Assembly (NCBI GenBank): GCA_019057375.1
Contig: DXJF01000011.1
Span: 32,001 to 96,000 of the forward strand
Source: Candidatus Heimdallarchaeota archaeon
Lineage (GTDB): Archaea; Asgardarchaeota; Heimdallarchaeia; Heimdallarchaeales; Heimdallarchaeaceae
DNA: 64,000 bases
Direction: 5' to 3'
The translations under genes and the position numbers were made by a program. Of the stretch, positions 10,108 to 64,000 are shown one piece after another (the first letter of the stretch is position 1; the number at the start of each line of letters is the position of its first letter). The notes beneath the pieces are model-generated. The model saw nothing but the letters and a program-made list of their open reading frames with translations, was not told where the DNA came from and ran no database searches.

Positions 10108-10249
10108 TTCTGTTATGTTTGCGATTTAATTATTCAAATAAATTAAGCTAAGGGGTTCTCGGAGATATTATTAATTACACTTGTTTAAACGTTTCCTTTT
10201 CTGTAAACAAAGTGATAAAGCTTAATTAATATGAGGAGTTTGTTTATTT

Positions 10250-39597: not shown

Positions 39598-41499
39598 TTA
39601 TCTCGTTCCCCTCGTATGTGGAGAGGGGGAATTTGATTTTAACAATTGCTCACCCTTATCTTTTACATTTTTTGCTGCATTTATGTGAGTATTCACCATT
39701 TTACCACACTTTTTACATTTTGCGATGTCATAAGAACCAATTTTTCTTTCGACTTTTCCTCCACAACCATTATGTTTTGTACTTGTTCCTCTTGGATTAA
39801 CATAAACAAGTTTAACCTTATATCCAAGTATTGAAGACGCTAATAATACTGCTTTTTCAAATATTTCTTGATTATCAGGCATATTGTATATTGCTTTAGC
39901 TAAAGCTCCTCTTTTTCCTCTAGGATCTATTTGAAAGTCTTCGACACAAAGTAGATTACTCTTATTTTTTACAATTTCAGCAGCAATGAAATGAGTTGCA
40001 AAATTTTTAATTTCTTCAAGAATGTTTTTCCTTCTTCTGTAGACTCTGTACAATTCTCCCTTAGTCTTAACATACCCTCTAGTGTCTTTCTTCTTTCCCT
40101 TATTCGTTAAACTATAGCTCAACTGAGGGATAATAACATTTGATAGTTTATTGTATTTTCTAGCTAGAAGCAACAAATTCTTTGATAAGGGCTCTTTGTT
40201 AGAAAGCGCAATCATATGTTCACTAACTCGGTTAATATCTACTCCTATGGATTTTACTTTCTTTGTACTCCCTTTCTTTGACAATTGCTTGAGAAGTTTT
40301 GTACTAAGAAACTTACTGGGAGTTCCTTCTATAATAACAGAAACTCTAACCTTATAGCTAGGTGAACTGTTGCTGCGAATGAGCAATGATCTAATTCGAG
40401 CTCCTTTGTTAAGATATTCTAAGATTTTCTTTGAAAAGATAAGCTTACATGTAATTCTAGGGAATCCTCTAAGAACGAATCCCAACTCGAAATACCCATC
40501 TTTTCTTGCAAGTTCCGTCATAACTTTTGAACTACCAGGTCTGAGAACAACATGTTTTGGACACATAATTAGTTGGATAGGTAATCTTCCTTTCTTTTTC
40601 TTTCTAAATGGTGGATGAACAATTTTAGTTGGGTGAGTTTTCTGAATTATTTCTATAACAGTCTTCTCTAATGTAGAGTAGAGTGCGAAGATCACTATTG
40701 CTCTTAAAGCAGAAAATAGTCTTCTATTTTTCTCACCTATTGATTCAGCAATTCTTTTACTTAAAAATTTCAAGCTTTTCCAACGAGAAGGATGTACAGT
40801 ATTATTCCACGAAGTAAGAAGAGGTGCTACAATATCCGCCTTTAAAGCTAACAAACGTAAGTTTTCTAGAAACACATTTGTTTTTGAATTGATTGGTTTT
40901 GATGTTAGTTCTAGGCATTTGGACTTATTACACTTCTGTATCGCTCTTTCGAATTCTTTCTGTGCTAAAAGTGGAAGCATAGTGTTGAATTTTAATCGTT
41001 GATTGCAAAATTTGTCTATTTGCCTTCTTGTACTGGTTAGTACATTGATTACATATAATCTCTTTACCTTCCATCTGTAGATAAGAATACTTTCAATTCT
41101 AGGACTTCTTCCAAAAATATACCATTCAATTGCTTGCTCTTTCCAATTCGACATTAAATCGAAAAATACTTCAACTTTCCTCTCTAAGGTAACTGTGCCT
41201 TTGGCTGCTAAAAATAAGTAAGTATATGCACTATCAGCAATACTAGGACTCTTCTTTGTGATTCTTTTGATGTTAGTTAAACCCACCATATTCGGCATTT
41301 TGGGTTCATTTCTTGCAATTGATAATGCAGCGTTTATTGCCTTTTTATCATGAATTAAATCTTCTTGTCTGACTTGCAAACCTTTTACTCTTTGGTTAGC
41401 TTCTTTTTCTTGTATTCTACGTTTCTCTCTAGTACCCTCAAACCTAACACCCATTTGATAAGTGCGAGTGACTAATGTTTGCTTTGTTTGAGAGGACAT
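39598..41499 (-). CDS. tnpB: Large TnpB-like RuvC protein (633 aa), no TnpA
   Basis: RuvC-I SIGVDIN, RuvC-II CVEDF, Zn finger HNGC...CKKC, RuvC-III NTHINAAKN (His at the Asp position); hairpin-rich 3' end. Confidence 0.85.
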   Translation of the reverse strand: MSSQTKQTLVTRTYQMGVRFEGTREKRRIQEKEANQRVKGLQVRQEDLIHDKKAINAALSIARNEPKMPNMVGLTNIKRITKKSPSIADSAYTYLFLAAKGTVTLERKVEVFFDLMSNWKEQAIEWYIFGRSPRIESILIYRWKVKRLYVINVLTSTRRQIDKFCNQRLKFNTMLPLLAQKEFERAIQKCNKSKCLELTSKPINSKTNVFLENLRLLALKADIVAPLLTSWNNTVHPSRWKSLKFLSKRIAESIGEKNRRLFSALRAIVIFALYSTLEKTVIEIIQKTHPTKIVHPPFRKKKKGRLPIQLIMCPKHVVLRPGSSKVMTELARKDGYFELGFVLRGFPRITCKLIFSKKILEYLNKGARIRSLLIRSNSSPSYKVRVSVIIEGTPSKFLSTKLLKQLSKKGSTKKVKSIGVDINRVSEHMIALSNKEPLSKNLLLLARKYNKLSNVIIPQLSYSLTNKGKKKDTRGYVKTKGELYRVYRRRKNILEEIKNFATHFIAAEIVKNKSNLLCVEDFQIDPRGKRGALAKAIYNMPDNQEIFEKAVLLASSILGYKVKLVYVNPRGTSTKHNGCGGKVERKIGSYDIAKCKKCGKMVNTHINAAKNVKDKGEQLLKSNSPSPHTRGTR

Positions 41500-46858: not shown

Positions 46859-47210
46859 TTATAAACTGAGTAAAACCATATTTACTATATCTGAATCTTG
46901 TTGGGTTTAAATAGATATTTTGCATTTCATTATTGAGATAGATGTTCGTAATTACATTCCTTAAGTCTTTAAGATCAAAGAAAAAAGGGGGACCTATTCT
47001 AGAAGAGATTCTACTTATTGGTATAGCAGTTCTTGTCTTTGCAATAATCTTTGCACTAATTTTTAGCTTAATAGATTGGTCTACATCTCCTTTTGAAGAA
47101 CTTTTCAAGTGAAGAGTTTTTTCTTTCAATTTCAAGAAACTTAGACTTTTAGTGGGTTTATAAGGGGAATTACTATATTTTCTTTGAAGCTAGCAATACG
47201 CAAGATAACA

Positions 47211-47308
47211 TTTTAGTCGATGAACCTCTTTCTATAGCTAGCTTCAATATTTTTCTTAACAAGAATTTTTATTGTAAACCAAAATTAGCTGACAATAACT
47301 CTCCTAGA
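47211..47308. repeat. 98-bp direct repeat, proximal copy (native 23S trailer)
   Basis: Matches 36977-37074. Confidence 0.95.
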
Positions 47309-47309
47309 A
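47285..47309. other. 3' arm of pre-23S processing stem
   Basis: Perfect 25-bp inverted repeat of 50935-50959, adjoining a BHB-like motif (AGA bulge, GGCG/CGUC helix). Confidence 0.85.
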
Positions 47310-47671
47310 TCTGACGAACCAATTTCCATTTTTCCTAACTACGCTTGAGCAATTAGTGATTGTGGGCTAAACATCTCGCCGAAGCTCGACGCGTACACCC
47401 CAATTCTATCAACCGGATCTTCTTTCCGCGCTCTCATCTATATCGAAGGTTACTGTCACCAGTCCCCTTATAGTGATACAGAGTGGGTGACTCGTTTCGA
47501 GAGTAGCTTCGAGCGTTGATGCATTCCGCTCTTATCTACGAGGGCTTAGCTACCCGGCGATACCCTTTAGGATAACCGGTACACCAGAGGCCCCAGCCGC
47601 CTGTTCCTCTCGTACTGTGGAGACTTTACTCTCAATCACCCGCCAGCACCATCAGATAGAATCCAACCTGT

Positions 47672-47826
47672 TTTGCGTGAATTTAAGCCCGAGTATTGAT
47701 CTTCGATAGAAGGGATTTCCCGTAAGGGGGGTTTACAACTATCAAAGACTTTTACATACTTGGATGAAGTTCAATTGAAGTATTACTACTATACTTCTAC
47801 AGAACTCCACTATAGCTTAAATCCAT
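47672..47826 (-). other. 155-nt BHB intron in 23S (about E. coli G2599/A2600)
   Basis: Removal restores GUGAG|ACAGG; UGUG/CGCA central helix, AGA and AAA bulges, 11-bp intron stem. Confidence 0.88.
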
Positions 47827-47975
47827 CTCACAACGGTCTAAACCCAGCTCACGTTCCCTTTTAATGGGCGAACAACCCCACTCTTGGCGGCTGAATCACC
47901 ACCAAGCTAGGAAGAGCCGACATCGAGGTAGCAAGCCGTGAGGTCGATGTGAACTCTTACCCACGACAACTCCGT

Positions 47976-48364
47976 TCAGGGCTGCGCTTGCGCTATGCGC
48001 ACATCGGCTTTAAGGATCAGTTGTCACCTGGTATAACGACATAGGCAGTTACATAATCCTTAACCTTATCTTCATGTCCTCACGCTTATTTTTGGCTCTC
48101 CATCTTTCGTGTTTATTTAGGGATTTATCTATTCTAAATGGATTTGTGACAGAAATTAGATTCACTCTGCTCAAGTTTTGTAGCCTTTTAATGGCGAAAA
48201 CTTTCGTTTCCTCACGTGGAAGAAAGACTGAAGCTATAATTAAATTCACTCAATTTTACTTTTCTGCCTCGGAAAAGATGGACTTTATCAATAAGCGTTA
48301 CAGACAGAGAGCACTCTTTGTGATAAACAATCACTTCTTCGTGATAAACACTCAGAAGCGCAGT
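47976..48364 (-). other. 389-nt intron in 23S (about E. coli A2450/A2451), BHB junctions
   Basis: Removal restores GGGGUA|ACGG; GGGG/CCCU helix, UAA and GAA bulges, CUGCGCUU/AAGCGCAG stem. Confidence 0.88.
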
Positions 48365-50934
48365 TACCCCTGGAGTAACTTTTCTGCCACCTCCGCCGCC
48401 TACTAATGGCACTGCGAAGGATCGCTAGGCCCTGCGTTAACATCTGCGAACTGTATTGGTGAGTTCACAGTCAACCGAGCTTTTGCCCTTGCACTCTTCA
48501 CCGGATTTCTGTCCCGGTTGAGCTCGGCTTTGGGCCCTCTTGATATCTTTTCAAGAGGCTACCGCCCCAGTGAAACTGCCAGGCAGGGGGTGTCCCCCTC
48601 GCAAGAGGTAAGTCGTACCAATGCGCAAGGTCAGTATTTCAAGTTCGACTCCCCTACATCCCGGAGAATGTAGGATCAGCATCTCCTGACTATGCTATGC
48701 ATGCACACCAATACAACAGCCCCTGACAGCAGTAAAGCTTCACAGGGTCTTCTCTTCCCGATGGTGCGCTCCAGACTGTTCGCTGGACTGTGGGTTCAGT
48801 AGGCTTCGGGTGGAGACAGTGGGCACCTCGTTGGTCCCTTCATGGACGTCTGTAATTAGCAGACAAGGCATTTGCCTACCTTAAGAAGCTCATAGTTAGC
48901 TCCGGCGTTTACTGGGTCTTAGCCTGGTTGAACCCAGGTTTCAATCACCAGCACCGGCCAGGATTCACTAACTGTACTAAGGCTTTCGCCCTTGCAGTTA
49001 GCTATGTTTTTATTAAACAGTCGGGTGCCCCTAGTCACTGCGACCTGGTAAGGCATACACCTTCCCAGGCATCCCTTATACCCAAGGTACGGGACTAATT
49101 TGCCGATTTCCTTCACCCGAGCTCCCCTAACACGCTTTAGCCTTCTAAGCTAGCCACACCTGTGTCGGTTCTGGGTACGGTCACGCGTAATCGTTCTCTT
49201 TGCTTTTTCATGGGCTGTTGGGGTTGATGGCAGCCAGCAACCTATGGCCGGCCTCTTCATCTATTCTTCTGGTTCTCACCTTAACGGTTCTTCCCAGAAT
49301 TCTATAATTTAACTAGGATATGCTCCTAGGCCACCTACCCACCAGCGTTAGCTCAGAGCTTGCGTCGCCGCGTCTATACGCGTGGTACAGGAATATGAAC
49401 CTGTTTCCCTTTCGAACGACTCGTTTTAAGATCGTCCTTAGGACCGACTAACCCTTGGCTGACGAACAGTGCCAAGGAACCCTTGGGCTTTCAGCGATGA
49501 GGATTCTCACCTCACTATGCTCCTACTACCACCGAGATCTGCAAATCTAATCGGTCCACTGGGAATCACTCCCCAGCTTCTGCCCAACCAGATCGCCCCC
49601 CTACCTGAGACTCTTGCGGAGTCCAAATGGGTATCGGGACCCGGTTTAGCCCCGTCCATTTTCTGAGCCCAACAACTCGATGAGTAAGCTGTTACGCTTT
49701 TTTTAACGGATAGCTGCCTCTAAGCTTACCGCCTCATTGTCTTAGTCGTTGGACGTCATTCTGTTTAACATTTAACCGGGATTTAGGGCCCTTAACCCAT
49801 TGTAGGGTTGTTCCCCTTTCGGCCATATCCCTTGCGGATACGCGCCCGTCTGTCGCCTTCTACAGCGCTTGCAAGTTCGGAGTTGGAAGGGAGGGTGAGG
49901 ATTTCACTCCCCAGAACCTCCCGTCCGTAGCTCTACCTCACAAGCCGCCTTCAGCGACGCTATCCTGTGGTGATACTTCGGGGGGAACCAGCTATCAGCA
50001 GTTTAGATTGGTCTTTTGCCACTATCCCCAACTCAGAGGAATGAATTGCATATCAATAACCCTTCAGGCCTCCACGCTCCTTTCGAAGCGCTTCACCTTG
50101 GTCAGGGATAGATCAACTGCTTTCGGGTCTTACACCTGTGACTTCACGCCCTTATCGGACGTCGCGCCTTGCCGAAGCTGCGCGCTGGTCGCTTTCGCTA
50201 CGCCACCGTATTAACTTAGGCTTGCCACAGACATAAACTCCTCGGCCCGTGTTTCAAGACGGAACGGATAACTCTGGTCCTCTCAGCTCGTACTACCACC
50301 TCACGATGGGTTCCTTCACCGAGACTCTACCCTTTCAAGCCATCCACGTCTGTTACCATGTAGTTTCAGGGACTTTTCACTCTCGTATTTCGAATACTTT
50401 TCAACTTTCACTCACGTTACTAGTGCGCTATCGGTCTAGGGGAGTATTTAGGCTTGGGAGTTAGTCCTCCCATATTTGCGCGACAAATCCAAGCCACGCT
50501 AGTCTTGATACTACTAAGCCGAGCGCTTACGTTTACGGGGTTATTACCCTCTATGACGCCCCTTTCCAGGGGCCTTCAACTTCACGCTTTCGGTCTATGT
50601 TGTAGTCAAAACACCACATCTACCTTAATTTTTCAAAAAAGGAATTCGGTTTGGCCTGTTCCGGTTTTACTCGCCGTTACTACCGGAATCACAATTGTTT
50701 TCTTTTCCTGCAGGTACTTGAATGTTTTGGTTCCCTGCGTTCCCCGCCATTACTGGCTGTTACAGTTTATTAGACTGTAACCGGAAATCCGATTCGGGAA
50801 TCTGTGGATCGTAGACTGTCTGCGTCTTCCCACAGCGTTTCGCCGCTTACCGCGCCCTTCATCGGCTCCCTAGCCGAGTCATCCACTACATGGCGTATGC
50901 ATAGTGTAGGTTACTCTAGAAATCAGTTTTCGCC

Positions 50935-50959
50935 TTCTAGGAGAGTTATTGTCAGCTAA
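50935..50959. other. 5' arm of pre-23S processing stem
   Basis: Inverted complement of 47285-47309. Confidence 0.85.
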
Positions 50960-51226
50960 CTAAACGTAATCGTTTAGGGATTATCATAAATCCTGGAGGT
51001 GATAAACACGCAAACTATTGCGCGAGTAGGGTTTTTATTCCCTTTGTTTATAATTGTTCCGTTTTTGAACATAATCGCAATCTTTCTGATCGCGTTCCTA
51101 CCCGTTAAGGTAAGATACAACAGATAAGCAAACATCGATAGATATTCACATTATCAACAAAATGAGCTATAGATAAAAAGGTATTGTTTTAAGATAAAAT
51201 TTCCTTAAAGCTACGGAAGATTTTTA

Positions 51227-51670
51227 GTGCTTGAGAACGACTCTTATTTGAGTTACATGAACCTTGATGAACATCTCTCCGAACTTAAACAACGTGCTGA
51301 AGAATCAAGTGTCAATGCTTTTGCTCCTTACAGTGATTTTATTATTGGTGCAGCTTTGCTAATGAAGAGTGGTAACATCTATACTGGATGTAATGTTGAG
51401 TTCTCAGATTATCTTGCTCTTCATGCTGAAGTTAATGCTATAGGGACAGCTATCAACAGTGGTGAAAATGATATTCAAGCTGTAGTAGTTTTTTCAAAAA
51501 GTTCACCACCTGTTCTACCTTGTGGATCATGTAGACAAAAATTATCTGAGTTCGCTCAGTTGAATAACCACGATATACAAGTGATTGCTTTTAACGATAA
51601 ACAAGAGCAAATAGAGTTCTTACTAAGTGAACTTTTACCAGGAGCTAAGATACAAGTAAATAAAAAATAA
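51227..51670 (+). CDS. cdd: Cytidine deaminase
   Basis: AFAPYS.F.IGAA...GCNVE, HAEVNA, PCGSCRQ. Confidence 0.93.
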   Translation: MLENDSYLSYMNLDEHLSELKQRAEESSVNAFAPYSDFIIGAALLMKSGNIYTGCNVEFSDYLALHAEVNAIGTAINSGENDIQAVVVFSKSSPPVLPCGSCRQKLSEFAQLNNHDIQVIAFNDKQEQIEFLLSELLPGAKIQVNKK

Positions 51671-51675
51671 CTTAC

Positions 51676-51819
51676 CTATTCAATTATTTCGTAGTACATA
51701 CAAGAGCCACATAACCAGAATTTCTTAATTTCAGTTAAATTATAATCATCAGGAAGATAGTTCTCTCTTTTGATCATTAATGCCCCACATTTTGGACATT
51801 CTTTTTGTTCATCACTCAT
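51676..51819 (-). CDS. Small Zn-ribbon protein
   Basis: MSDEQKECPKCG...WLCGSCMY. Confidence 0.55.
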   Translation of the reverse strand: MSDEQKECPKCGALMIKRENYLPDDYNLTEIKKFWLCGSCMYYEIIE

Positions 51820-52300
51820 AGACTTATCACATTCATCTAAACTTCTATACAAATGCACATTAATATTTTACGAAAGTCCTAGCGGAATCATTTGATTTTT
51901 AGGCTAGTAAAAACCCATTCTAAGCCTAGGTTGAAGAATGAATATAATTGGATTTGAGATCTATATACTACGAGTGAAATAACCCTTTTCTTCCTTCCAT
52001 TTGGATTTTAAAAGGGGCAGTCAAACATTATTAGAGACATACAAACAAAACATGATTATTAACAGAAATATAGAAGAAATTCAGAAGAGGAAATTAAAGG
52101 AAGGACCCTTTGTGTAAGATTAAAGCTGTCATTGCTTTAGTTTTTTCCCTTTTGATTTGTTTTGCGATTGTCTCAAGAGTTTTTGCGTTCTTTTCCATTT
52201 TTTGCACCTATCCTAACATAAGCTCTCCTTTTAAAATAGGTTAACCACAAGTTATGGTCACAAGTTGTGTCATAATCGCGAAAAAAATGATTGTAAAAAA

Positions 52301-52334
52301 TCTTACCACACAATTATAATTTTCTGTGGTAAGA
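52301..52334. repeat. Third copy of the 9-16-9 inverted repeat
   Basis: TCTTACCAC-acaattataattttct-GTGGTAAGA. Confidence 0.75.
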
Positions 52335-52432
52335 TACATCTAATGACTTTTGGGGGGGTTAAATTCTGATTAACAAAACCCTCCTTTTCATCAATCCTTA
52401 TAAATCGCTACTTCACACAACATGCGTTTATC

Positions 52433-52768
52433 ATGAAAGAAGTATTTCCGGAAGCAATAAGAAAACTACCTGAAGCAGATATTCCCATACAAGGACTTAC
52501 AGCCTTTTTATCCCAAGATAAGAATCATCAAATTGTCTTTATGCATTTCAATCAAGATGTAGAAGTTCCCGCACACTCACATGGAGCTCAATGGGGAATT
52601 GTGCTAGAAGGGGAAATAGTATTAACAATAGAGGACAATGAACAAAAATATACTAAAGGAGATCGTTTCTATATTTTGGAAGGAGAGACACATTCCGCAG
52701 AAATACATGCAGGATATGCTAGCATGGAATTTTTTGCAGATAACGATAGATACAAAGCTAAGGAATAG
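52433..52768 (+). CDS. Cupin-domain protein
   Basis: PAHSH..QWG.VLEG...GD.F.I..G..HSA. Confidence 0.88.
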   Translation: MKEVFPEAIRKLPEADIPIQGLTAFLSQDKNHQIVFMHFNQDVEVPAHSHGAQWGIVLEGEIVLTIEDNEQKYTKGDRFYILEGETHSAEIHAGYASMEFFADNDRYKAKE

Positions 52769-52780
52769 AGATAAATTAAT

Positions 52781-52855
52781 TTAAGCTGGTGACCAAAATG
52801 GTGGAGTTATGCTTTCGTCGCCATCTTCAGGATCGTATTTCGGTTCATTCATCAT
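52781..52855 (-). CDS. 24-aa conserved micropeptide, copy 3 (MMNEPKYDPEDGDESITPPFWSPA)
   Basis: Same length, motif and upstream element as the copies at 36.6 and 36.9 kb. Confidence 0.75.
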   Translation of the reverse strand: MMNEPKYDPEDGDESITPPFWSPA

Positions 52856-53035
52856 GTTCATCTCAGGAAAGGTTATCATTTTAGTTAGACAAAGCTATTA
52901 AAGCACCCCAAAGAAAAGACTGACAGTTACAGCTATTTCTGATTGGAAGAGTTGGCTAATAGATAATTGGCTTGATGAGTTTGAAAGATTAAAACCTTAT
53001 TTTCTTAATTCAGAGCAATTATGACAACTAAAAAA

Positions 53036-53093
53036 CTCCAAGGAATACAAGAACCCCGAGAGAAAGATTCTACAGAAGTAGAGAAATAAGGGG
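53036..53093 (-). repeat. R1: degenerate copy of the 16S trailer stem arm
   Basis: AATACAAGAACCCCGAGA identical in R1, R2 and R3, followed by CTACAGAA.TAGAGAA. Confidence 0.85.
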
Positions 53094-53185
53094 TGAAAGA
53101 ACGAGTTTTATTAAATAGAAATTGTAAAAGTTGTTTCAAATGTTGTGCTTAGAAACAATTTTGAAGATTATATAAAATATCAAGG

Positions 53186-56100
53186 TTAATTTATGTTTTC
53201 AACATATTTTATTATTTCATGACTTATCATGTAACTTATTCTTTTTCCAATACCATCAATTAAATTTGACATAAAAATATCTCCTGCGTATGTATCCTCC
53301 ATAATCTCAAGAATCAAAGATGGATTTATATGGTGGAAGATATCCAATAGAATTTTTGGATTGTAATTGCTTTCTACATGGGTTGCTGCATATGTTAACC
53401 AAAGAACATCCTCTTTATTTCTGATTAATTGCACTAAATTTGGTATTAATTTTATAGCTATATCTTCTTCTAAGCCTGCAATTTCTAGAAAAGGATAAAC
53501 TACCGTATCAAATGAATAATCATAATTTAGTATAATTGATTCAGAATTAATTTTATCTATTAAAAATACAGTTAGATCTTTGTTAAATACACATAATCCT
53601 TTGATAAAATGAAACAAATCAACAATATTCCATTTATCTTCTAGCTTATTTTTAATAAAATCAGAATCAAGTATAGAATTTATATCTAAAAGAAGATCGT
53701 TTTTTGCAATATATCTCAGAGAATACAAAGTAACACCAATGTCATGAAGATCTTTTTCCGTTTTTATTTTTTCATAAAGAACATCCTTATCTAGTAATAC
53801 AAGTATTCGAGAAATTAAATCCTCAGAAAAAAGTGATGCACTACTCAAAAGACATTTAACACCAATTAAATCTTCAGAACAATTAACTTTTTCAACTAAA
53901 TTCTTAATATTTTTCTTGTTCAATACAAGATTAATTGAGTCTGTTTCACCTAAAAAATCTAAAATTATCTCTATCTGAGACAAGTTTGTTTCAGAGTCAA
54001 TTCTTTTCGTAAAATAATCAAAAATTCTTGTTTTTTTGATATTAAACTGTTTGTTTTTTCCTAAGTTATAATAAAAAAGTTTATTCATGAAATTAATAAG
54101 ATGAATAAAATCTTCATGCTCTATTGTTTTACTCAAAATGATAGATTTTCCAATGATTCCAGAGGCTATCTTAGCTAGATTATAATTTTGGTTGATTATA
54201 GTACTAAGAAAAGAAAACGAACTATCAGGCAATATCCAGTTTATTCTCTTCAAAATTTTTCTGATTTTAATTTTCCTAAGAAATATTCTTATATTTTTAT
54301 TACTCATTTGCCAAAATAAAGATTCAATACTTTGTACAAACATCTTGCAATCTATAACATTTTTGAATTTCTTAATAAGAATATTCAGATATTCTTTTTG
54401 GTACTTCGAAATGATGAATCTTTCATAAAGCATTGTTATAAAGTATAAATCTTCTTCGTACTTCATGCTTTCTAATAAATATTTCATAATCTCTCCGTCG
54501 CTAAGAAGATAATCAACAATACCTTTGGTATTATCATTCATAAGAAATTTCAAAATTTTAATTTTATAATCCTCATTTGAGTGAAGTATGTACTCTTTGA
54601 AGAGATTAAAATCATCCTCGTATCTTTCACCAAGTAAAAGTCGCAAATTATAGGAAATGCAATTTGAGAATTTTATTGCAGAATAATAGAGCTGTGCAAC
54701 AGATTGATGTGACAGAATATAAGTAATCTGAAAATAAGCACTACCAATGTGATGAATGTTGTGTTTTTCGTATAAATTCCAAACGTTTGATATATGGACT
54801 ATTTCTACTGGATAGTATAGCAAATGTTCAATTATTTCATGCTTTTCTAACAAATATTCAAGGATATGATTATGAATTTTTAAATTCTGAATTAGATAAT
54901 TTTTCTCAACCCTAATATTATGTTTGGAGAATACAGATAAAATAAATACACAATCATAAAATTGATCAAGCTCTTTATGATTAAAAACTTCATCTAGACT
55001 TTCAAGTATATATTGATAGATTTCCTCTTCATGAACTTCACATTTTTCATGATCTATTGAGTTTAGAGCAAATTCTAACAACCACAAATCTTGCCAATAC
55101 TTACTCAATTGAATTTGAAGTTTAGAAAAGTTATTATGATTTCGCAAATTAGAATCATTCGGTATATGTTTTTTTACGATTTCTTCAGCAATTTCTTCAG
55201 CTGTAATTTTTAATATGGGATTTCTCTCAAATTCAGAATTTCCTCTTATTTTGAATTCAATAAGTCTTGTTCCTGCAAGTACCAAGCTTTTTGAAGACGC
55301 ATTATGTAATTTACATATGTTATTAAAAGAATTGAGATTTTCATGAATATCATCAAGAATTATTAATGGTTCTTTTCTATCATATAGAAGTATTTTGCAA
55401 AGTTCTTCTATTTTTTCACGATTTTCTTCCTTAAAACTCAGATAATATACTGGTCGTTTTTTTGCCAATATAAAACCCACGTGCTTCAAGAATACAGATT
55501 TTCCTGATGCTGAATCACCTAAAACTATAGTTCTTTTCTGTTTTTCCAATTCTTGAATGCATTCTTTAAGTACTCTTCTTTCAACTATTTTTCCTTCCTC
55601 AAAATTTGACCAAACAGGTATTTTTTGTTTACTTTCAAAAACCTGATCTTTCCTTAAAACATGCTCAATCGAGTTTTTTTCTATTTCCAAATATATGTAT
55701 GAACTAGATCCCTTCTCTCTCAAGTAATCATGTATAATATGTTTCTTAATTGTCGTTCCTTTACAATAATTTTTAGAATTAATGTGACCAAGAAAGTATC
55801 TTATATTGCTTTTGTTTGTTTGATATCCATATTGTTCAGCAATTTCTATTATATGATCTTCTAGTGAATCAAGTTGGATACATTTGAATTCTACTTTTTT
55901 AATGAAATCTGATAGAATATCAACTGTTATTTTACTACCAAACATTTCAGAATAATTTTCCGGAATAATTTTACATATATCCGATAGTTCTTCTTTTGGT
56001 ATTATAATTTTTGAATCTGAAAAAAACTCATCTTTGATAGGTATATTACTATAAAAAACGAAAGTCTCAACTCCTTTTGAACGAACCAATAATTGAAGCA

Positions 56101-56323
56101 AAGGACCTCTTTTTCCTGAATAGAAAAGTTGTTTTGGAGTCCAGCTACTGCTGCTTTGGATACTTTTAGCTTCCCCAATGCAGATTTTTCTTCCGTTAGT
56201 ATAAAAAGAACTGTCTTCATAGTTTTTTTCTATAGAAAATTCATCATATTTGTTTGATAGAATATGGTATAGTGCAGTTAAAATTTGGTAATTAAATTTA
56301 TGTCCAAGATGCTCATCTATCAT
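53186..56323 (-). CDS. Nuclease + STAND-type P-loop NTPase + helical repeats (Avs-like defence protein)
   Basis: N-terminal ED...IGEAKS PD-(D/E)XK-like motif, Walker A GDSASGKS, Walker B IILDDIHE, C-terminal helical repeats; visibly AT-richer than core genes. Confidence 0.7.
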   Translation of the reverse strand: MIDEHLGHKFNYQILTALYHILSNKYDEFSIEKNYEDSSFYTNGRKICIGEAKSIQSSSSWTPKQLFYSGKRGPLLQLLVRSKGVETFVFYSNIPIKDEFFSDSKIIIPKEELSDICKIIPENYSEMFGSKITVDILSDFIKKVEFKCIQLDSLEDHIIEIAEQYGYQTNKSNIRYFLGHINSKNYCKGTTIKKHIIHDYLREKGSSSYIYLEIEKNSIEHVLRKDQVFESKQKIPVWSNFEEGKIVERRVLKECIQELEKQKRTIVLGDSASGKSVFLKHVGFILAKKRPVYYLSFKEENREKIEELCKILLYDRKEPLIILDDIHENLNSFNNICKLHNASSKSLVLAGTRLIEFKIRGNSEFERNPILKITAEEIAEEIVKKHIPNDSNLRNHNNFSKLQIQLSKYWQDLWLLEFALNSIDHEKCEVHEEEIYQYILESLDEVFNHKELDQFYDCVFILSVFSKHNIRVEKNYLIQNLKIHNHILEYLLEKHEIIEHLLYYPVEIVHISNVWNLYEKHNIHHIGSAYFQITYILSHQSVAQLYYSAIKFSNCISYNLRLLLGERYEDDFNLFKEYILHSNEDYKIKILKFLMNDNTKGIVDYLLSDGEIMKYLLESMKYEEDLYFITMLYERFIISKYQKEYLNILIKKFKNVIDCKMFVQSIESLFWQMSNKNIRIFLRKIKIRKILKRINWILPDSSFSFLSTIINQNYNLAKIASGIIGKSIILSKTIEHEDFIHLINFMNKLFYYNLGKNKQFNIKKTRIFDYFTKRIDSETNLSQIEIILDFLGETDSINLVLNKKNIKNLVEKVNCSEDLIGVKCLLSSASLFSEDLISRILVLLDKDVLYEKIKTEKDLHDIGVTLYSLRYIAKNDLLLDINSILDSDFIKNKLEDKWNIVDLFHFIKGLCVFNKDLTVFLIDKINSESIILNYDYSFDTVVYPFLEIAGLEEDIAIKLIPNLVQLIRNKEDVLWLTYAATHVESNYNPKILLDIFHHINPSLILEIMEDTYAGDIFMSNLIDGIGKRISYMISHEIIKYVENIN

Positions 56324-56679
56324 ACAAATATCATCTTTTTTGTTTATTTCAATAAAGTTTGAAATTAAATATCGAATTCAACTTAATCTATATGTTATTT
56401 TTTACAAAGCTACTTAAATGCTTTTTTTTCTATTGGTAAAGATGAAAAATTAATATTTATAGATAAATGGAAACCTTTTGAAGATTTTGAGAGAAATATG
56501 AATAAGTTGTTAGAAACTCTAGAAGTATTAATTTAAGATATCATATTGAGAGAAATATAAGTAAAACCTGAATAAGTTAATTATATAGATATATGGATGA
56601 ATGCTAATTTGTTGGAAGAATTTACTTCAATTAAACATTATTTTTACTAAAATAAATTTCAAACTATGAAGAATAAATA

Positions 56680-56789
56680 CCCCCAAATAATACAAGAACC
56701 CCGAGAATAAGATTCTACAGAAGTAGAGAATAAAGGGTTGGGGTTGGGAAGTCTTGAAAACTTCCGAACGTAGGAGGTGATCCATCAGC
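56680..56789 (-). repeat. R2: degenerate copy of the 16S 3' end (anti-SD) plus trailer
   Basis: 56762-56789 matches 62343-62370 at 26/28 incl. GGATCACCTCCT; trailer arm at 56680-56737. Confidence 0.9.
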
Positions 56790-56832
56790 TTTGAATTAAA
56801 AATTCCTTGGGGTTTAACAATGCAAGTTTATA

Positions 56833-57144
56833 TTAAATATCAATGTAACAGTTCCTGATAAGAAAATGCTTGGTAGTTGAGGTAATATGGATTCCAAAGG
56901 AAGTGCTAGACGTAATATTGTAGTTCTCAATCAAGTAAGGATCTTCATATGTACCTGAACCTGGAAAAGCTAAGAAATCTTCATCTGAAGTAATCTCTAT
57001 AGGGTCATGGTTTGTAAGATAATTAGTGTTATTAGATTGGTTAGCTTTAGTTTCTCCGTCAACAGTAATTGTTACAGAAACTAAAAAACAAAGTAGGATA
57101 AGTGTTCTTCTACATCTAGGGGACATAGTATTCTCTAGATTCAC
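56833..57144 (-). pseudogene. Truncated secreted protein (N-terminus of NosD/beta-helix-type surface protein)
   Basis: Signal peptide then HDPIEITSDEDF..FPGSGT.EDPYLIENYNI...FLIRNC; ends abruptly next to R2. Confidence 0.65.
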
Positions 57145-57237
57145 TTAATTATTCTATATAAACCAGCAAGAAATTATTCAATACATTTTGGTTTTACCAC
57201 GTTTTTAAGTCATTTTAATTATAATAACTCAGAAACA

Positions 57238-60200
57238 ATGAGAAACAGAATTTGGCTTTGTAAAATCCTCTTATTGGCTAGCATACTTTGTGGAGGCTTT
57301 CTTCTAATTAACAGTGAGGTTGAAGCTGAACCAGGATTAAGAGATGTGACAACCAATGCTTTATTACCTTATGATATTAATTTTGAATTTAACTTCTCTG
57401 GCAGTGAAGAAGTTTATAATTTGCATTCAAATCAAATTGAATTAGGAGAACTAAATAAACTCACACTTTCTTTCCGAGTAAACGGTATGAGCGGTTCTCC
57501 AGGATTAAAAATAGTGTTCATTTTCATGACTATTAAAGTTGGATTTGTTGTTGACCGAATTTTTAATGATGATACTTTACACAATTTAACTGAGACTTTT
57601 CTTTTTCCTCACAACTATTCAGGTAGTATGGATATTACTGTCATTTGTAGTGGTAGTTCAACTTCTACAAGAAATGGATTTCTTACCATATTTAATAGCA
57701 CTAAAATAGAACAAATGAATATTCCCACAATATCAGAGGATTCTTTTTCTCTTCCAACTTCCCAGGATTGGGTGATGTTCAAAGGTAATATATATTCTTG
57801 GAATAGAGGAGGAATTACATCTGCTTTTTACAATTACGATGAAATGGCACTAGTAAGTCTTAACATATCCTTCTCTTCAAATTATTTTCAGTCAATAGAA
57901 AATGTAGTTGAAATTTCTTTAAATGGTAATTTTGTTGCAGAAGATTATTTCATTGAAGATTTAAGTAATAATATTGATATTCAATTTCAACCTGAAATAG
58001 GTTTGAATCTCTTATCATTGAATTTCTCTGTTTCTTATTCCTTTAATCCAATTTATATTTCAAATATCTCTCTTTTTGGCTCTCTTTTTAATTATGAATC
58101 TAGCAGTTCTACTTCAGATTCATTTAGTTGGGAAAGTGGTTTTTTTTCCTACTCTTTTGATTTATCTACGTTAAAACCCCCTGGGTACTATTCAGAACAA
58201 GTTCTTCACTTAACAATCAATTACCAATGTTTCGGAATGAAAATCTCTTCAGGAATAAACTATTTTCTAAAAATAGGGACATCTATTCTCGAGGAAGGAA
58301 CCATAAGCTATCTCGAGCAAATGTATGAGAATAATAGTTTAAAGATCGAGACCTTTACTACGGAATATCACAACCCTCTTACGTTTAAAATTTTCGGCAC
58401 TTCGAATGGGGTGGGAGGACTTACTATTTTAAATTCAAGTACGATTGAAATATCTCACATAGGTGAGCTAACAAAACAACCTTTGAGTAGAACCATAGCA
58501 GATGAAAGAAGTGTTAATGGTCCTTCTCTTGCTGTTTCGCTTAGTTTTTATGATGTCTTTCAAACTTATAGGATTGCAGCTCCTGTACAATTAGCTGTTA
58601 ATTTTAATACAGTTTCTACTTATGAACATCCCTTTGATTTACTTACAGTAACAGTCAAAATTGATGGTGTAAGAGTAATATCAAAAAATGTTCATATTCT
58701 CGGTTTTGCAAATTTTAGTAAAGAATTTTCCTTAGAACATGGGTATCACGAAGTTAGAATAAATTTCCAATTTTCTGGCATTAATACTCCTCTCACAGTA
58801 GAACAATTGAAGTACCAACTAGCTTTACAAATTGAAGAAGAAATTACTGTCTCAACAGCACTCTCTTATGCTCGTCAATCAACATTCTATCTTCTAGCCT
58901 TTTACGCCCTCCTCTATGTCCTTCTAGATGTTAAAGAAATAAATCGAGAGAGAATCAAGGAAAAAGAAAGTTCTATTCGTGAAGATTCTATCGAAGATGC
59001 AAATGATGACTCTAGGAATTTATTACGTACGGCTCTCATGGTTGTTGTAAATATATCTATTAATTTGACTCCTTCTGTTTTCTTCTTGTTGCATGGAATT
59101 AATTACTGGTTTATTTTACCCTTAAGCTTCTTTGTAGCTTTACATTTCAGTATCAAAATTCTCTTTTCGAATTTTTCGAAAGATGCAATAGTTGGGTTTT
59201 GGAACAAAACAAGAGACTTCTTTAGAGATATCTATTCCCTCTCAGGCTTTCTTAATAAAGTTACAAGATCATTCGGAAAACTCTCTTTTAGAAGCTTAAC
59301 TAGATTATTGGTCTTCGCTATAGCTTTTCTGAGCTTTGGCTTATTGTTTTTCTTGGCAGATAATATTCCTTCAAATGCTGTCAAGGAAGTCTGGATTGTC
59401 TATGCTCTTTTGCTAGTTTGTATTGTTATATCCTCTCTTACTTTATTCTACACCCTTCATTTAGTTAGAGACATGGCTTTTATAGAGGACAATCTGAAAA
59501 GAATAAAGAGGTTAGGTTATGCTTCCATCACACTTGTTGCTGGTTTTCTATTTGTTCTTATCAGCATGTTAGGCACTAAACTCAGTCTTTCAAGCATCTG
59601 GGGTTTCCTTTCTCCAATCCTCCTTTTTGGTATTTTTCGTACAACAACTAAACTAGGAAAGATTTCTGCCAAAGAAGAAAAGCTCTCCTTTGACGATTTT
59701 CTGGATAAAGGAATGTTCTTCACTGATAAGAAGGAGATGCGAAAAGCTGTCAGTTTTGGTATCAATACTCGCTCTACTTGGGAAAAGAAAGGGTATGAAC
59801 TCCAGAAACATCAGATAAAAGGTGTTATCGCTTACGATTACAACCCTGGAGATAAGATCAATCTCTATGAACTGGCTGAGAAGATTAAACTCCCCTTTAA
59901 GAAAACAGAGGAACTTGTTCAGGAGATAGAAAAAGAAGTTCCTAGATTAGGAAAATATGACCCTCAATCTAAAATCTATACCAAGAGCAAAGAGAATATT
60001 ATAGAAGCTCAGGAAATTCAGGAAAAAATTGTTCCAGATAAATATGAAAATGAAGAAAAGAATGTAGAGATGAGTAAAATACCAACAAAGAATATTTCTA
60101 CAAAAGAAAGATTTCAGAAGCTGCTTGAAGAGGTAGTAGGAGAGAGTGACGAGGAGAAGAGGAGAACTCTAGAATATGTGAATCATTTGACAGCTAAAGA

Positions 60201-62181
60201 AGCGGAAGTATATCAAAAATTCTTGAAAAAGGGATTGGGAGACCAAGATATAGTCATAACTAATTCTGACAGAGAATTTTTACAAAGAGCATGGAAGAAG
60301 ATACATGTTCAAGAAGATATTTTTCAAAGAAACAGTTCTAGCAATTTGCTGAGGGAATATTATGATAAGATATCAGATGCTCACAACGGTTTTGATGATG
60401 TTGTGTTTGAGATAAAAAAAGAATTATTCAAAATATCCTTTTTGGAGTATAAAGTAGGTGATCGTGCAACTTACTATCCTTGGGAGTATATTCCTAAATT
60501 TGGATATCATTTGCTACGTAGAGAATTAAATGAAAAACAACTTCTTAAGTACATAGAAAAAAACCCAATAGTTGAATCTCTTTTTTCATCTCAATCAAAT
60601 TTGGGGAAAAAGAAAGTTCCTTTAATCATTAGAAAGCTATACTACGACAGAAACAGGCAGTATCATATCATTGGAAATGATTGGTTAGTCAAATTCATGA
60701 ATGGAGACTTTCAGAATGCTCTTTCTCATTTAGTCACTAAAGGTCTACTAACAAACAAACAGAAAAAGAGAATTACTGTGGGATTATCGGAATTTAACCA
60801 ATTGGTAGGTTTAGCTCAGAATGGACACACTTTTCGAGTTTTCGATAATACGAAAAAAATACAATTAGAATCTTGTGCAGAAATAACATTAGGTGGAAAA
60901 CAAATTATCTTATACCACGATTTCTTTTTACCTAAGTTTGAGATTAATCAAGAAAAAATCAGCATAAGTCTTCAAGGTTTTAATAAGATAACAACTTCTA
61001 AACACAATCAATTGAACCTGCTAATTAAGAAAGAATACTTCCTCAGAGACGATCAAGAGGACAAGATTCTTGTTCTCTATGCTAAACTTAAAAGAGAATT
61101 TCTTTTAGATTTGATAAAATCTAAATTAATGGACCATTTACAGGTTTTATATGATAAAAGATATATTTCTGGACTTGATACAATTACATCATCAGATTTT
61201 ATTCCGTCTATTGATAAATTAAAAAAGCAACCCACAAGACAGAGGGGTATAGTTTGGTTTTATGATGATATTCAAGTTTCACCTATTGATTTTCTTACTA
61301 ACAAAAAATTCAAAGAAATTCTACAGGAAAAAGATGAAGAATTGCTATTTTCTAAATTAGCTTCATTACTAAGTGACACTGAAACTTTTTTTGAAGACGA
61401 AGGTAGAAAGCAATTTTCTATAGCTTATGAAGCCTATAAGAATGGACATTTCGATTTCTTTCTTTTTAATCAAAGTGTTAATGAGATCTATAAACCTCCT
61501 ACTTACTCTTTTAGGCAAGGTAATATTCCTAAAACTGGTGTTATATTAGTTGACCACAACAATAGAATAATCAACTTAATTTCCCCCTCAAAAGCTGTTA
61601 GTATTCTACTAGAAGAGGGTGATATATTGCTTAACTTTCCTTTTAGATGGGATTCACACTATGGTTATTTTGCATTCACCCAAAAAGGAAATAGAATGAG
61701 TAATGTTGCCAAGTCTTGGTATGATTGGTTGATTAAGGCAAATCTTCCCATTCCTTCAGGTTCCAGTGGTAGAATTCCTGATATATCAGTAATTGCAATG
61801 TTACTAGAGTGGTGGACAAGGCAAGAAAATTTTGTTATCAATAGGATTCTTTCAAACCAAGTTTTTATTGAGAGTTGTAGGAAACACAAAATTGTGGTTG
61901 ATAAAGATTCTACAATGGTTATTGATTCAAAAAAGAATTCTTACAAACTTGCACGAGTTTCTGTTACTCAAACAGGAAATATTAGACATAAAGAAAATTG
62001 GAAATATTACGCGTTTTATAATGACAAAATACGCACAGTTATTGATGTTCTTAAAGCTGCAATTTTTGATTTAGTTTTACAGAAAGGCAATATTTCTTCC
62101 GCTCAAATACCTGATTTGAGAAATTGGTTGAAGATAAATTGGTTGGAAGAATTTGAAAAACTGAAAGAATATTTCTTTTGA
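57238..62181 (+). CDS. 1647-aa receptor-like membrane protein: ectodomain paralogous to 44141-46858, multi-TM, PCI/winged-helix-like region, large unknown C-terminal domain
   Basis: Ectodomain aligns by eye (DRIFNDDTLHNLTETFLFPHNYSGSMDITVICSG vs NRIYQDSNEHSISKSFSYPQNFIGSMIIVISCEG). Confidence 0.8.
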   Translation: MRNRIWLCKILLLASILCGGFLLINSEVEAEPGLRDVTTNALLPYDINFEFNFSGSEEVYNLHSNQIELGELNKLTLSFRVNGMSGSPGLKIVFIFMTIKVGFVVDRIFNDDTLHNLTETFLFPHNYSGSMDITVICSGSSTSTRNGFLTIFNSTKIEQMNIPTISEDSFSLPTSQDWVMFKGNIYSWNRGGITSAFYNYDEMALVSLNISFSSNYFQSIENVVEISLNGNFVAEDYFIEDLSNNIDIQFQPEIGLNLLSLNFSVSYSFNPIYISNISLFGSLFNYESSSSTSDSFSWESGFFSYSFDLSTLKPPGYYSEQVLHLTINYQCFGMKISSGINYFLKIGTSILEEGTISYLEQMYENNSLKIETFTTEYHNPLTFKIFGTSNGVGGLTILNSSTIEISHIGELTKQPLSRTIADERSVNGPSLAVSLSFYDVFQTYRIAAPVQLAVNFNTVSTYEHPFDLLTVTVKIDGVRVISKNVHILGFANFSKEFSLEHGYHEVRINFQFSGINTPLTVEQLKYQLALQIEEEITVSTALSYARQSTFYLLAFYALLYVLLDVKEINRERIKEKESSIREDSIEDANDDSRNLLRTALMVVVNISINLTPSVFFLLHGINYWFILPLSFFVALHFSIKILFSNFSKDAIVGFWNKTRDFFRDIYSLSGFLNKVTRSFGKLSFRSLTRLLVFAIAFLSFGLLFFLADNIPSNAVKEVWIVYALLLVCIVISSLTLFYTLHLVRDMAFIEDNLKRIKRLGYASITLVAGFLFVLISMLGTKLSLSSIWGFLSPILLFGIFRTTTKLGKISAKEEKLSFDDFLDKGMFFTDKKEMRKAVSFGINTRSTWEKKGYELQKHQIKGVIAYDYNPGDKINLYELAEKIKLPFKKTEELVQEIEKEVPRLGKYDPQSKIYTKSKENIIEAQEIQEKIVPDKYENEEKNVEMSKIPTKNISTKERFQKLLEEVVGESDEEKRRTLEYVNHLTAKEAEVYQKFLKKGLGDQDIVITNSDREFLQRAWKKIHVQEDIFQRNSSSNLLREYYDKISDAHNGFDDVVFEIKKELFKISFLEYKVGDRATYYPWEYIPKFGYHLLRRELNEKQLLKYIEKNPIVESLFSSQSNLGKKKVPLIIRKLYYDRNRQYHIIGNDWLVKFMNGDFQNALSHLVTKGLLTNKQKKRITVGLSEFNQLVGLAQNGHTFRVFDNTKKIQLESCAEITLGGKQIILYHDFFLPKFEINQEKISISLQGFNKITTSKHNQLNLLIKKEYFLRDDQEDKILVLYAKLKREFLLDLIKSKLMDHLQVLYDKRYISGLDTITSSDFIPSIDKLKKQPTRQRGIVWFYDDIQVSPIDFLTNKKFKEILQEKDEELLFSKLASLLSDTETFFEDEGRKQFSIAYEAYKNGHFDFFLFNQSVNEIYKPPTYSFRQGNIPKTGVILVDHNNRIINLISPSKAVSILLEEGDILLNFPFRWDSHYGYFAFTQKGNRMSNVAKSWYDWLIKANLPIPSGSSGRIPDISVIAMLLEWWTRQENFVINRILSNQVFIESCRKHKIVVDKDSTMVIDSKKNSYKLARVSVTQTGNIRHKENWKYYAFYNDKIRTVIDVLKAAIFDLVLQKGNISSAQIPDLRNWLKINWLEEFEKLKEYFF

Positions 62182-62207
62182 TATTCAATTTGGGTGAAAT
62201 AAAAAAG

Positions 62208-62266
62208 CCCCCAAAGAATACAAGAACCCCGAGAGAATGACACTACAGAAATAGAGAATATAAGGG
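62208..62266 (-). repeat. R3: native 16S trailer incl. 3' arm of the leader-trailer stem
   Basis: 62239-62258 pairs with leader 63973-63994 (7 bp, 2-nt bulge, 13 bp). Confidence 0.85.
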
Positions 62267-62351
62267 GACTTCTTTCGAAGCCAGAGTTGGTCATAACAAG
62301 GCCTAAAAACAGGCCCTGCATGATCAAGGAATCCTTGAAGGATTCCAAACG

Positions 62352-63863
<1,512 letters not shown>

Positions 63864-64000
63864 CCTGATTCGATTATGATACGATCTATTTGCTATCTTC
63901 CATGAATTGAACTATTTTAGCGCACATACACGTACTAGTGTTTTTGTACATACTAAATTTTGTTCCTTAAAATTCTCTAAATTTCTGTAGCATCAGAACA

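Follow-up and report, generated by a model that had tools for sequence, protein, structure and literature searches.

In Heimdallarchaeota the 16S and 23S rRNA genes are parted by protein-coding genes and are probably transcribed separately, as stated in the parts of Juttner and Ferreira-Cerca 2022 (PMC8997704) that deal with these genes, and in Brewer et al. 2020, which that paper cites. Unlike the unlinked Asgard rRNA genes described there, both genes of the locus considered here still lie on one strand, 6-11 kb apart, and in the gap between them the 16S end and its trailer still stand in serial copies, a feature not mentioned in those parts of PMC8997704. The spacers of rRNA operons are kept alike within a genome by homologous recombination or gene conversion, as reported for the 16S-23S spacers of C. 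difficile (PMC4164361) and the rrn operons of E. coli (PMC8022953). However, such concerted spacers belong to complete operons at other chromosomal sites, whereas here they are fragments of the 16S end of one operon, placed in tandem inside the operon and interleaved with genes.

The islands at tRNA and tmRNA 3' ends are similar to the locus in that direct repeats of an RNA-gene end separate blocks of accessory genes while the functional gene stays intact. The differences are that the target here is a 16S gene, the repeat (140-330 nt) includes a strand of the processing helix and the end of a neighbouring gene, the boundaries are uneven, an old family of paralogues makes up the main cargo, and no integrase was found in the genome's own assembly or in the array genes and flanks. 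Integron arrays likewise line up units, mostly of one gene and each flanked by a structured repeat, beside a fixed platform and with variable content, but the present locus differs from them by the lack of an IntI-type integrase in the same searches, by repeats that are near-identical within a genome in place of diverse attC sites, by the mixed orientation of the genes and by their being mostly paralogues. In the papers searched, unlinked rRNA genes are described and no trailer array was found; the separation of Asgard rRNA genes is known, while this manner of operon break-up has not been seen before in that literature.

The window, that is, the whole analysed stretch of 64,000 nucleotides, carries the 16S and 23S rRNA genes on the minus strand, with the 23S gene 11.4 kb downstream of the 16S gene according to Rfam, and the features of the interval are collected in the table.

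Features of the 16S-23S interval, in positions of the window
Feature	Position	Strand	Basis and remarks
16S leader strand of the leader-trailer helix	63968-64000	-	extends to about 64032 past the window, read from L038; cofold with R3
16S rRNA gene	62353-63863	-	Rfam RF01959, 1294 bits
R3, native 16S trailer, long type	62125-62352	-	hairpin 62328-62346; extra ~60 nt 62269-62327; core 62190-62268
1647-aa membrane protein gene, convergent to 16S	57238-62181	+	orthologues of relatives at the equivalent place
NosD/beta-helix secreted protein, 103-aa N-terminal fragment	56833-57144	-	53% identity to residues 8-104 of a 392-aa G023 protein; Pfam on full-length relatives
R2, short type	56594-56789	-	pseudo-16S end 56772-56789; hairpin 56747-56765; core 56662-56740; relic of giant-gene C-terminus 56594-56650
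STAND NTPase gene, 1045 aa	53186-56323	-	Pfam nSTAND_NTPase5, E 4.8e-10, 39.9 bits (cut-off 34); GC 24-28%
R1	52953-53095	-	core 53017-53095; relic of giant-gene C-terminus 52953-53024 on +
Small peptide ORF (..NEPKYDPEDGDESITPPFWSPA), downstream of R1	52781-52879	-	~90% identity to the spacer and peptide region of module 2 in G009
Conserved 23S-proximal frame (cupin, Zn-ribbon, deaminase)	51227-52768		Pfam
Cupin	52433-52768	+	Pfam; kept in G001, G003, G004, G010
Zn-ribbon	51676-51858	-	Pfam
Cytidine deaminase	51227-51670	+	Pfam
23S rRNA gene	47333-50910	-	Rfam RF02540, 2463 bits

The 3' strand of the 16S leader-trailer helix is found three times in the interval, as R1, R2 and R3. A repeat search of the window returned their 79-nt core three times and the adjoining 50-nt block also three times, and the 18-mer AATACAAGAACCCCGAGA occurs exactly three times against 0.02 expected; thus, the triplicated 16S trailer proposed in the sequence-only reading is real. 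The complement of the 16S end, in the form of the 15-mer AGGAGGTGATCCATC, is present exactly twice in the window (at 56772 and 62353) against 0.00 expected. The same reading had described R2 as a duplicate of the 16S end (18 nt) and of the hairpin that follows it, and this was borne out by 84% identity over 43 nt between R2 (56747-56789) and the native 16S end with its hairpin (62328-62370), as well as by the compensatory changes in the stem, GGAATCC/GGATTCC in R3 and GGAAGT/ACTTCC in R2. R1 has neither the 16S end nor the hairpin, and it holds the AGATTCTACAGAAGTAGAGAA block in common with R2, at which R3 differs, as had also been noted. The copies derive from genuine 16S 3' ends with their trailers; they diverge from one another by 16-29%, with no homogenisation of R1 and R2 with R3 in the present genome, and the far end of R3 overlaps the final codons of the 1647-aa gene.

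The leader-trailer helix has the core as its 3' strand, and long complementarity between the upstream and downstream flanks, which marks an archaeal 16S processing helix, was found for the leader and R3. In cofold on the 65-nt leader segment (64032-63968), R3 gave -69 kcal/mol with 49 intermolecular pairs, R1 -64 kcal/mol with 44 pairs and R2 -59 kcal/mol with 43 pairs, versus -27 +/- 3 kcal/mol for shuffled sequences; the figures refer to this segment, since duplexfold on long flanks over-extends the pairing. By eye, the helix centre shows a 5-nt/1-nt asymmetric loop and not the canonical 3-4-3 bulge-helix-bulge motif. An inverse, leader-like copy was also seen upstream of the 16S gene in two relatives, G001 and G010.

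Among the genes of the interval, the 1647-aa gene had been regarded as cargo that arrived with the repeats, but it is a resident of the locus. It has a full-length counterpart of 33% identity at the same position in G017 and a split orthologue, again at the same position, in G023 (77% nucleotide identity over 2.9 kb); moreover, some 20-30 codons of its 3' end form part of R1, R2 and the repeats of relatives, and this gene end lies inside the repeat even in genomes without the giant gene. Its product gave no Pfam match. The beta-helix fragment breaks off 44 nt short of R2; the end of a TPR gene, considered as a relic upstream of R2, was set aside, the alignment being ambiguous and the same bases coding for the beta-helix fragment in another frame. 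The STAND NTPase gene is the only strain-specific gene in the interval, with no relative among 40 related genomes or in genome_contigs, and together with its low GC profile this agrees with the part of the earlier proposal that made it arriving cargo. However, the designation "Avs-like" was not established: the gene has the Pfam match alone, PADLOC gave no match for the nSTAND, 1647-aa and TPR proteins, and a sequence search of the PDB with the nSTAND protein returned no solved structure. The small peptide ORF beside R1 is an orphan, the first gene of a peptide and TPR module, and the deaminase/23S-proximal flank is conserved in G001, G009 and G010.

The triplication is not peculiar to the present genome, where the sequence-only reading had seen two foreign integrations, but belongs to a genus-wide array architecture. 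At least 13 of the 25 genus genomes, which are MAGs and, being related, non-independent samples, contain two to six core copies each, between 16S and 23S wherever both genes were assembled. The order of 16S, copies about 2 kb apart and 23S is seen directly in G009 and G001, and an equivalent order in G010 terminates in the conserved 23S-proximal genes; no repeated trailer was found downstream of 16S, within 13 kb and 4.4 kb, at the two loci taken from other families, G025 and G027 respectively. The repeating module consists of a trailer copy, a small peptide gene and a TPR gene. Internal copies with a pseudo-16S end were found in seven genomes (G000, G001, G003, G004, G015, G016 and G023), so that direct repeats of the 16S 3' part flanking inserted DNA, as in R2, occur in six relatives as well. 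In most of the seven, the stop codon of a TPR gene (~530 aa) lies a few nucleotides upstream of the pseudo-16S end, its place being taken by a gene for a 622-aa protein without a Pfam match in G016 and by the truncated beta-helix gene in G000. All pseudo-16S ends share one left boundary, within CCTGCGGA of helix 45, while in many other copies the 16S end and hairpin are missing, or the core is reduced to its second half.

Short- and long-type trailers trade places between native and internal positions (G000 versus G001), and trailers of the short R2 type are indeed native to the 16S gene of other genomes, namely G009, G013 and G018, so that the refuting condition set in the earlier reading, no relative with such an arm at its native 16S, does not hold. 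The donor lineage expected for R1 and R2 did not emerge, as the best matches to R2 in the 24 other genus genomes are native short-type trailers at 81-83%. Exchange between lineages can be seen in G001, one of whose internal copies is very close to the trailer native to G023. In addition, copies are separated by single genes other than TPR genes, of at least seven kinds and in both orientations (beta-helix, peptidase S9, alpha/beta hydrolase, beta-lactamase-like, HEAT, nSTAND and a 341-aa ORF without a name); this looks like cassette capture and counts against the reading of the locus as an array of duplicated modules.

Nevertheless, that reading is held with moderate confidence: R1-R3 would be inter-module spacers of an old tandem array between 16S and 23S in a genus of Heimdallarchaeaceae, with an origin in the 16S end, an upkeep by recombination and a role in termination. 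The array may have been seeded by a tandem duplication whose limits were a point ~19 nt within the 16S 3' end and the stop codon of a TPR gene further downstream, and because the duplication would have begun there, each unit starts with a pseudo-16S end, after which come the hairpin of the trailer and, closing in a U-run, the 3' strand of the leader-trailer helix. The remainder of the proposed unit comprises the relic of the convergent giant-gene 3' end, a promoter region, the gene for a ~25-aa peptide and the ~530-aa TPR gene. The pattern of likeness suggests that homologous recombination or gene conversion between spacers holds them alike in each genome, and such recombination could also lengthen or shorten the array and let the contents of modules be swapped or replaced. 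In the present genome the array would have decayed with the loss of its TPR genes, leaving R2 after the truncated beta-helix gene, the foreign low-GC nSTAND gene between R2 and R1, and R1 with the orphan peptide gene only. The copies are, on this account, a record of an rRNA operon pulled apart and not scars left behind by two foreign elements. How the gap grew, through repeated duplication and replacement of units, would thus be readable across about 12 related genomes, at a locus that seems to be a fast-changing site for accessory genes such as the STAND NTPase, with an rRNA processing sequence reused many times beside protein genes.

The evidence for an array maintained by recombination comes from its genes and spacers. 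The TPR genes of one array are only 43-61% identical and form lineages common to several genomes (tree supports 100/99, 100/99 and 97/98), while identity in the variable 26-nt centre of the core is 89% within genomes versus 70% between them, a difference reached in 0 of 5000 permutations. In G004, four internal copies are near-identical from the hairpin to the U-run, and the DNA on both flanks diverges. Homologous units, spacers alike within a genome and old paralogous genes, by which a tandem paralogue array with concerted evolution is recognised, were found together. The hairpin shows double changes at 7 of 7 predicted pairs across 21 copies and at 7 of 8 across 18 whole modules, including a G-C pair turned into A-U in one internal copy of G004, and this covariation points to selection on the hairpin. 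Nearly all copies terminate in GGAG(G) followed by T5-6, with the exception of R2, in which the run is broken, and of two G017 copies in which C's precede or interrupt it. Both the hairpin and the G-rich/U-run part may be kept because they give the gene upstream an RNA 3' end or terminator, a use to which the trailer copies have probably been put. A U-run is sufficient for archaeal terminators, and the conserved CU-rich helix strand is for this reason left unexplained by a terminator role. A closing stem between the anti-SD and GGAGG at the core end folds in single sequences, but it shows no covariation and is not claimed.

Att-type site-specific integration, by which successive mobile cassettes carrying an attP copy of the 16S 3' end and trailer would have entered as in tRNA islands, is considered unlikely. 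A part of this earlier proposal that stands is the repetition of an RNA-gene end. The partial 3' ends at the junctions share one left boundary, and the native 16S gene remains intact; the single-gene cargo is diverse and turns over rapidly among close relatives (the 23S flank of G009 shows 97% identity, yet its array content is different), and the trailer types change between native and internal sites. The constant left boundary and the still recognisable pseudo-16S ends would also fit a site-specific mechanism. However, a precise uniform boundary was not found at every junction, being constant only where the 16S end is present, and the non-TPR cargo has ragged edges, with the truncated beta-helix gene, hairpin-less copies and half-core copies. 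Besides, the main cargo consists of paralogues common to the genomes and not of mobile-element genes, the repeat takes in the 3' end of the resident giant gene, and the array is genus-wide. The tyrosine recombinase profile PF00589 had no match at E<=0.001 in the genome's own 89%-complete assembly, in a genome-wide search directed at tyrosine and not serine recombinases that matched 14 of 14 control genomes; the array genes and scanned neighbours contained no recombinase domain.

An integron-like capture platform built on the rRNA processing signal, in which the nearly invariant strand would be a homology anchor throughout the genus or a recombinase site for the capture and exchange of single genes, and the transcripts would be handed to rRNA maturation by the retained pseudo-16S end, hairpin and strand, is likewise doubtful. 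Of the integron hallmarks, a tyrosine recombinase was lacking in the same search, and the repeats are trailer copies and not attC-like imperfect palindromes. Gene capture by such a platform would include defence-type genes.

There is, furthermore, a small chance that the internal copies are working RNA signals of rRNA maturation, which pair with the single 16S leader or are cut by Nob1/EndA and thereby release or regulate the peptide and TPR transcripts together with pre-16S rRNA. Such a role is suggested by the retained pairing of R1 and R2 with the leader, by the hairpin covariation, by the basal-helix strand CGGGGTTCYTGTATTCYTTGGAG, which is nearly invariant in about 40 copies, even in those stripped of all else, and by the pseudo-16S ends that are still recognisable beside genes so diverged. 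However, a single long 16S-23S transcript is unlikely because convergent genes (the giant gene, the cupin and the deaminase) intervene, and the core centre is not constrained by pairing, since it varies freely while the leader is constant. The lack of covariation in the anti-SD/GGAGG stem, the weaker pairing of R1 and R2 than of R3 and the failure to see a clear bulge-helix-bulge motif by eye also speak against it.

A misjoining of repeats near the rRNA genes in the MAG is very improbable, since, although rRNA regions are difficult to assemble and many relatives' contigs end at the 16S gene, the copies are too far apart in sequence to be collapsed or duplicated reads, the architecture recurs in more than 10 MAGs from separate studies, and the arrangement is identical in three assemblies, with 0 mismatches over 47186-62323 (15,138 bases) in two further ones (ENA, JGI), whose underlying reads may be common, a match that argues against a one-off misassembly.

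Along the rRNA direction of the window, the gene order is 16S, the native trailer copy R3, a gene for a 1647-aa protein, a beta-helix gene fragment, the internal trailer copy R2, a STAND NTPase (nSTAND) gene, the internal copy R1 and a small peptide ORF, followed by cupin, Zn-ribbon and cytidine deaminase genes and then 23S. A tRNA was sought within the 11.4-kb interval between 16S and 23S and none is present; the identical 15 kb were found in two further assemblies. The 79-nt core of the repeat is the 3' strand of the 16S leader-trailer helix and, like the 50-nt block adjoining it, occurs three times. The triplicated trailer and duplicated 16S end noticed in the sequence-only reading proved to be real: a core-internal 18-mer is exact in all three copies (chance expectation 0.02), the complement of the 16S end matches exactly at two sites (expected 0.00), and R2 duplicates the hairpin together with the ACGTT linker and the 18 nt of 16S end that precede it, with the stem altered on both strands (GGAATCC/GGATTCC in R3 versus GGAAGT/ACTTCC in R2). 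Cofolded with the leader (64032-63968), R3, R2 and R1 form 49, 43 and 44 pairs, respectively; their energies lie between -59 and -69 kcal/mol, and shuffled sequence gives -27. In R3 the 50-nt block encodes the end of the 1647-aa protein, and in R1/R2 it survives as a dead relic of that gene end (..WLIDNWLDEFERLKPYF.. and ..NLLEEFTSIKHYFY versus ..WLKINWLEEFEKLKEYFF).

Features of the rRNA locus and related sites (window positions unless a region is named)
Feature	Position	Strand	Remark
16S gene	62353-63863	-	Rfam
23S gene	47333-50910	-	Rfam
R3, native trailer			directly after 16S in rRNA direction
79-nt core, three copies	53017-53095, 56662-56740, 62190-62268		repeat search of window
1647-aa gene	57238-62181	+	strand opposite to rRNA
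103-aa fragment of secreted beta-helix (NosD-like) gene	56833-57144
1045-aa STAND NTPase gene	53186-56323
Small peptide ORF (a peptide/TPR gene site)	52781-52879	-
Other peptide/TPR gene sites	L035 260-345, 2290-2360, 4255-4330; L038 2868-4544		extracted regions; L038 reaches beyond the window
16S-start-like trailer stretch	62311-62334	-
16S start	63840-63866	-
Helix 45 insertion, source genome	62380-62410
Helix 45 insertion, relatives	L033 ~10085-10120; L037 ~170-215		extracted regions
905-aa RING-finger protein	44141-46858	-	downstream of 23S
633-aa protein	39598-41499	-	~6 kb downstream of 23S

A trailer query matched 19 of the 24 other genomes of the genus, and at least 13 of 25 (source genome included) are multi-copy, with no fewer than two each; the copies commonly share a contig at a spacing of ~2 kb, and the series commonly begins at a contig end adjoining 16S. 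Among the eight multi-copy regions of relatives extracted for inspection, the order is plain in G009 and G001 (16S, three copies, deaminase, 23S). The typical unit, all in the rRNA direction, is a trailer copy, a ~25-aa peptide gene (xKYDPEDGDE..PPxW.P) and a ~530-aa TPR-type protein gene, while single beta-helix, peptidase S9, alpha/beta hydrolase, beta-lactamase-like and HEAT genes also lie between copies in both orientations. The array content turns over fast, since the 23S-proximal flank of G009 is 97% identical to that of the source genome and the array content differs. A similar array was absent at both 16S loci examined from other families. Passages of PMC8997704 already describe Heimdallarchaeota with unlinked rRNA genes; this trailer array is not described in the papers that were searched.

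The peptides are paired with ~530-560-aa TPR-type proteins ending KCRxYGFSRLExKLL, a family of more than 130 members, every one in Heimdall-type MAGs, and the two look like a fast-diversifying peptide-receptor pair. TPR proteins of one array share only 43-61% identity, and their tree contains lineages common to several genomes (the first G004 gene with two G001 genes, G003 with G009, both 100/99), which indicates that the TPR paralogues predate the species. The spacers evolve in the opposite manner, being alike within a genome: the 26-nt core centre varies freely among genomes, the leader being constant, with 89% identity within genomes versus 70% between, a value reached in 0 of 5000 label permutations, a test inflated by kinship. 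Four internal copies of G004 are near-identical from the hairpin through the U-run and diverge on both sides, in the pseudo-16S end (a copied piece of the 16S 3' end) and in the DNA past the U-run. One peptide/TPR copy also lies upstream of 16S.

Compensatory change affects 7/7 predicted hairpin pairs (21 copies) and seven of eight when 18 whole modules are compared; one internal G004 copy has G-C replaced by A-U. GGAG(G) and a T run close nearly all copies; R2 and two copies of G017 depart from this. In archaea, termination is signalled by a U-run.

From this pattern we infer a single old tandem duplication, whose unit would have begun ~19 nt before the 16S 3' end and closed with the stop codon of the TPR gene; the spacers would then have undergone unequal crossing-over and gene conversion, module contents would be replaced occasionally, and the hairpin with the G-rich/U-run part would be kept as a 3'-end module. 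Such duplication, spacer recombination and content replacement are, on balance, probably the simplest account of the array, of which the window holds a decayed version. The internal copies may take part in processing of the rRNA type. That an integrase-type mechanism built the array, in line with the att-type arrival proposed earlier, is improbable, because no enzyme was found in the array genes, the flanks or the source assembly and the copy boundaries are not uniform; a search of the whole 89%-complete assembly for Phage_integrase (PF00589, E<=0.001), positive in 14/14 control genomes, gave none, XerA-type included.

R2 is not unique, since internal copies starting with a pseudo-16S end and hairpin occur in six relatives, G001 (2), G003 (2), G004 (3), G015 (2), G016 (1) and G023 (1). 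In most of them the TPR stop codon is a few nucleotides upstream (in G016 the preceding gene encodes 622 aa that match no Pfam family), and in all the 16S homology begins at one common place, which falls in the 3' strand of helix 45. Some 16S genes of the genus carry a ~31-nt insertion at that spot, and a decayed version of it is present in the G016 copy. The source genome has a ~31-nt insertion in helix 45, and a different one, a hairpin of ~31 nt, is inserted between CTGCGGA and TGGATCACC in G001, G017 and G010, at a site coinciding with the repeated unit's left boundary.

Two trailer types exist, long (~60 extra nt) and short, and either may be native with the other internal: the source genome has a long native trailer and the short R2, and G001 a short native trailer and one long internal copy closely matching the G023 native trailer. 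Since short R2-like trailers are native elsewhere, an arm of the R1/R2 type does occur at native 16S genes of relatives, as the claimed foreign origin would predict; no relative stands out as donor of R2 (best match 83%). The long-type stretch ..TTGATCATGCAGGGCCT.. resembles the 16S start ..TTGATCATGCCGGACCT.. (15/17), so a 16S-5'-end-like sequence lies within ~20 nt after the 16S 3' end; either mimicry or a former head-to-tail junction, of which this is a relic, may explain it.

The two genes taken for cargo fared differently. For the 1647-aa gene, G017 holds a full-length orthologue (33% identity, same position and orientation) and G023 a split one at the same place; in both, the next gene is the beta-helix gene of which the source genome keeps a truncated form. 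The 3' end of the 1647-aa gene forms part of the repeat even in genomes without the gene, so the gene is an old resident of the locus. Unlike it, the nSTAND gene agrees with the cargo claim, having no homologue in 40 relatives or among a wider set of genome contigs and a GC content of 24-28% versus 30-35% in its surroundings. Its first ~215 residues, which look like a shared effector-like domain, have a 39%-identical paralogue within a 735-aa open frame on another contig (G000:C84:7047-7694, region L040). The 1647-aa protein and the 905-aa RING-finger protein have an N-terminal domain of ~550 aa in common (26% identity, E 2e-48) and differ in their C-terminal parts. The 633-aa protein carries a Cas12f1-like TNB domain (TnpB/IS200-605 type).
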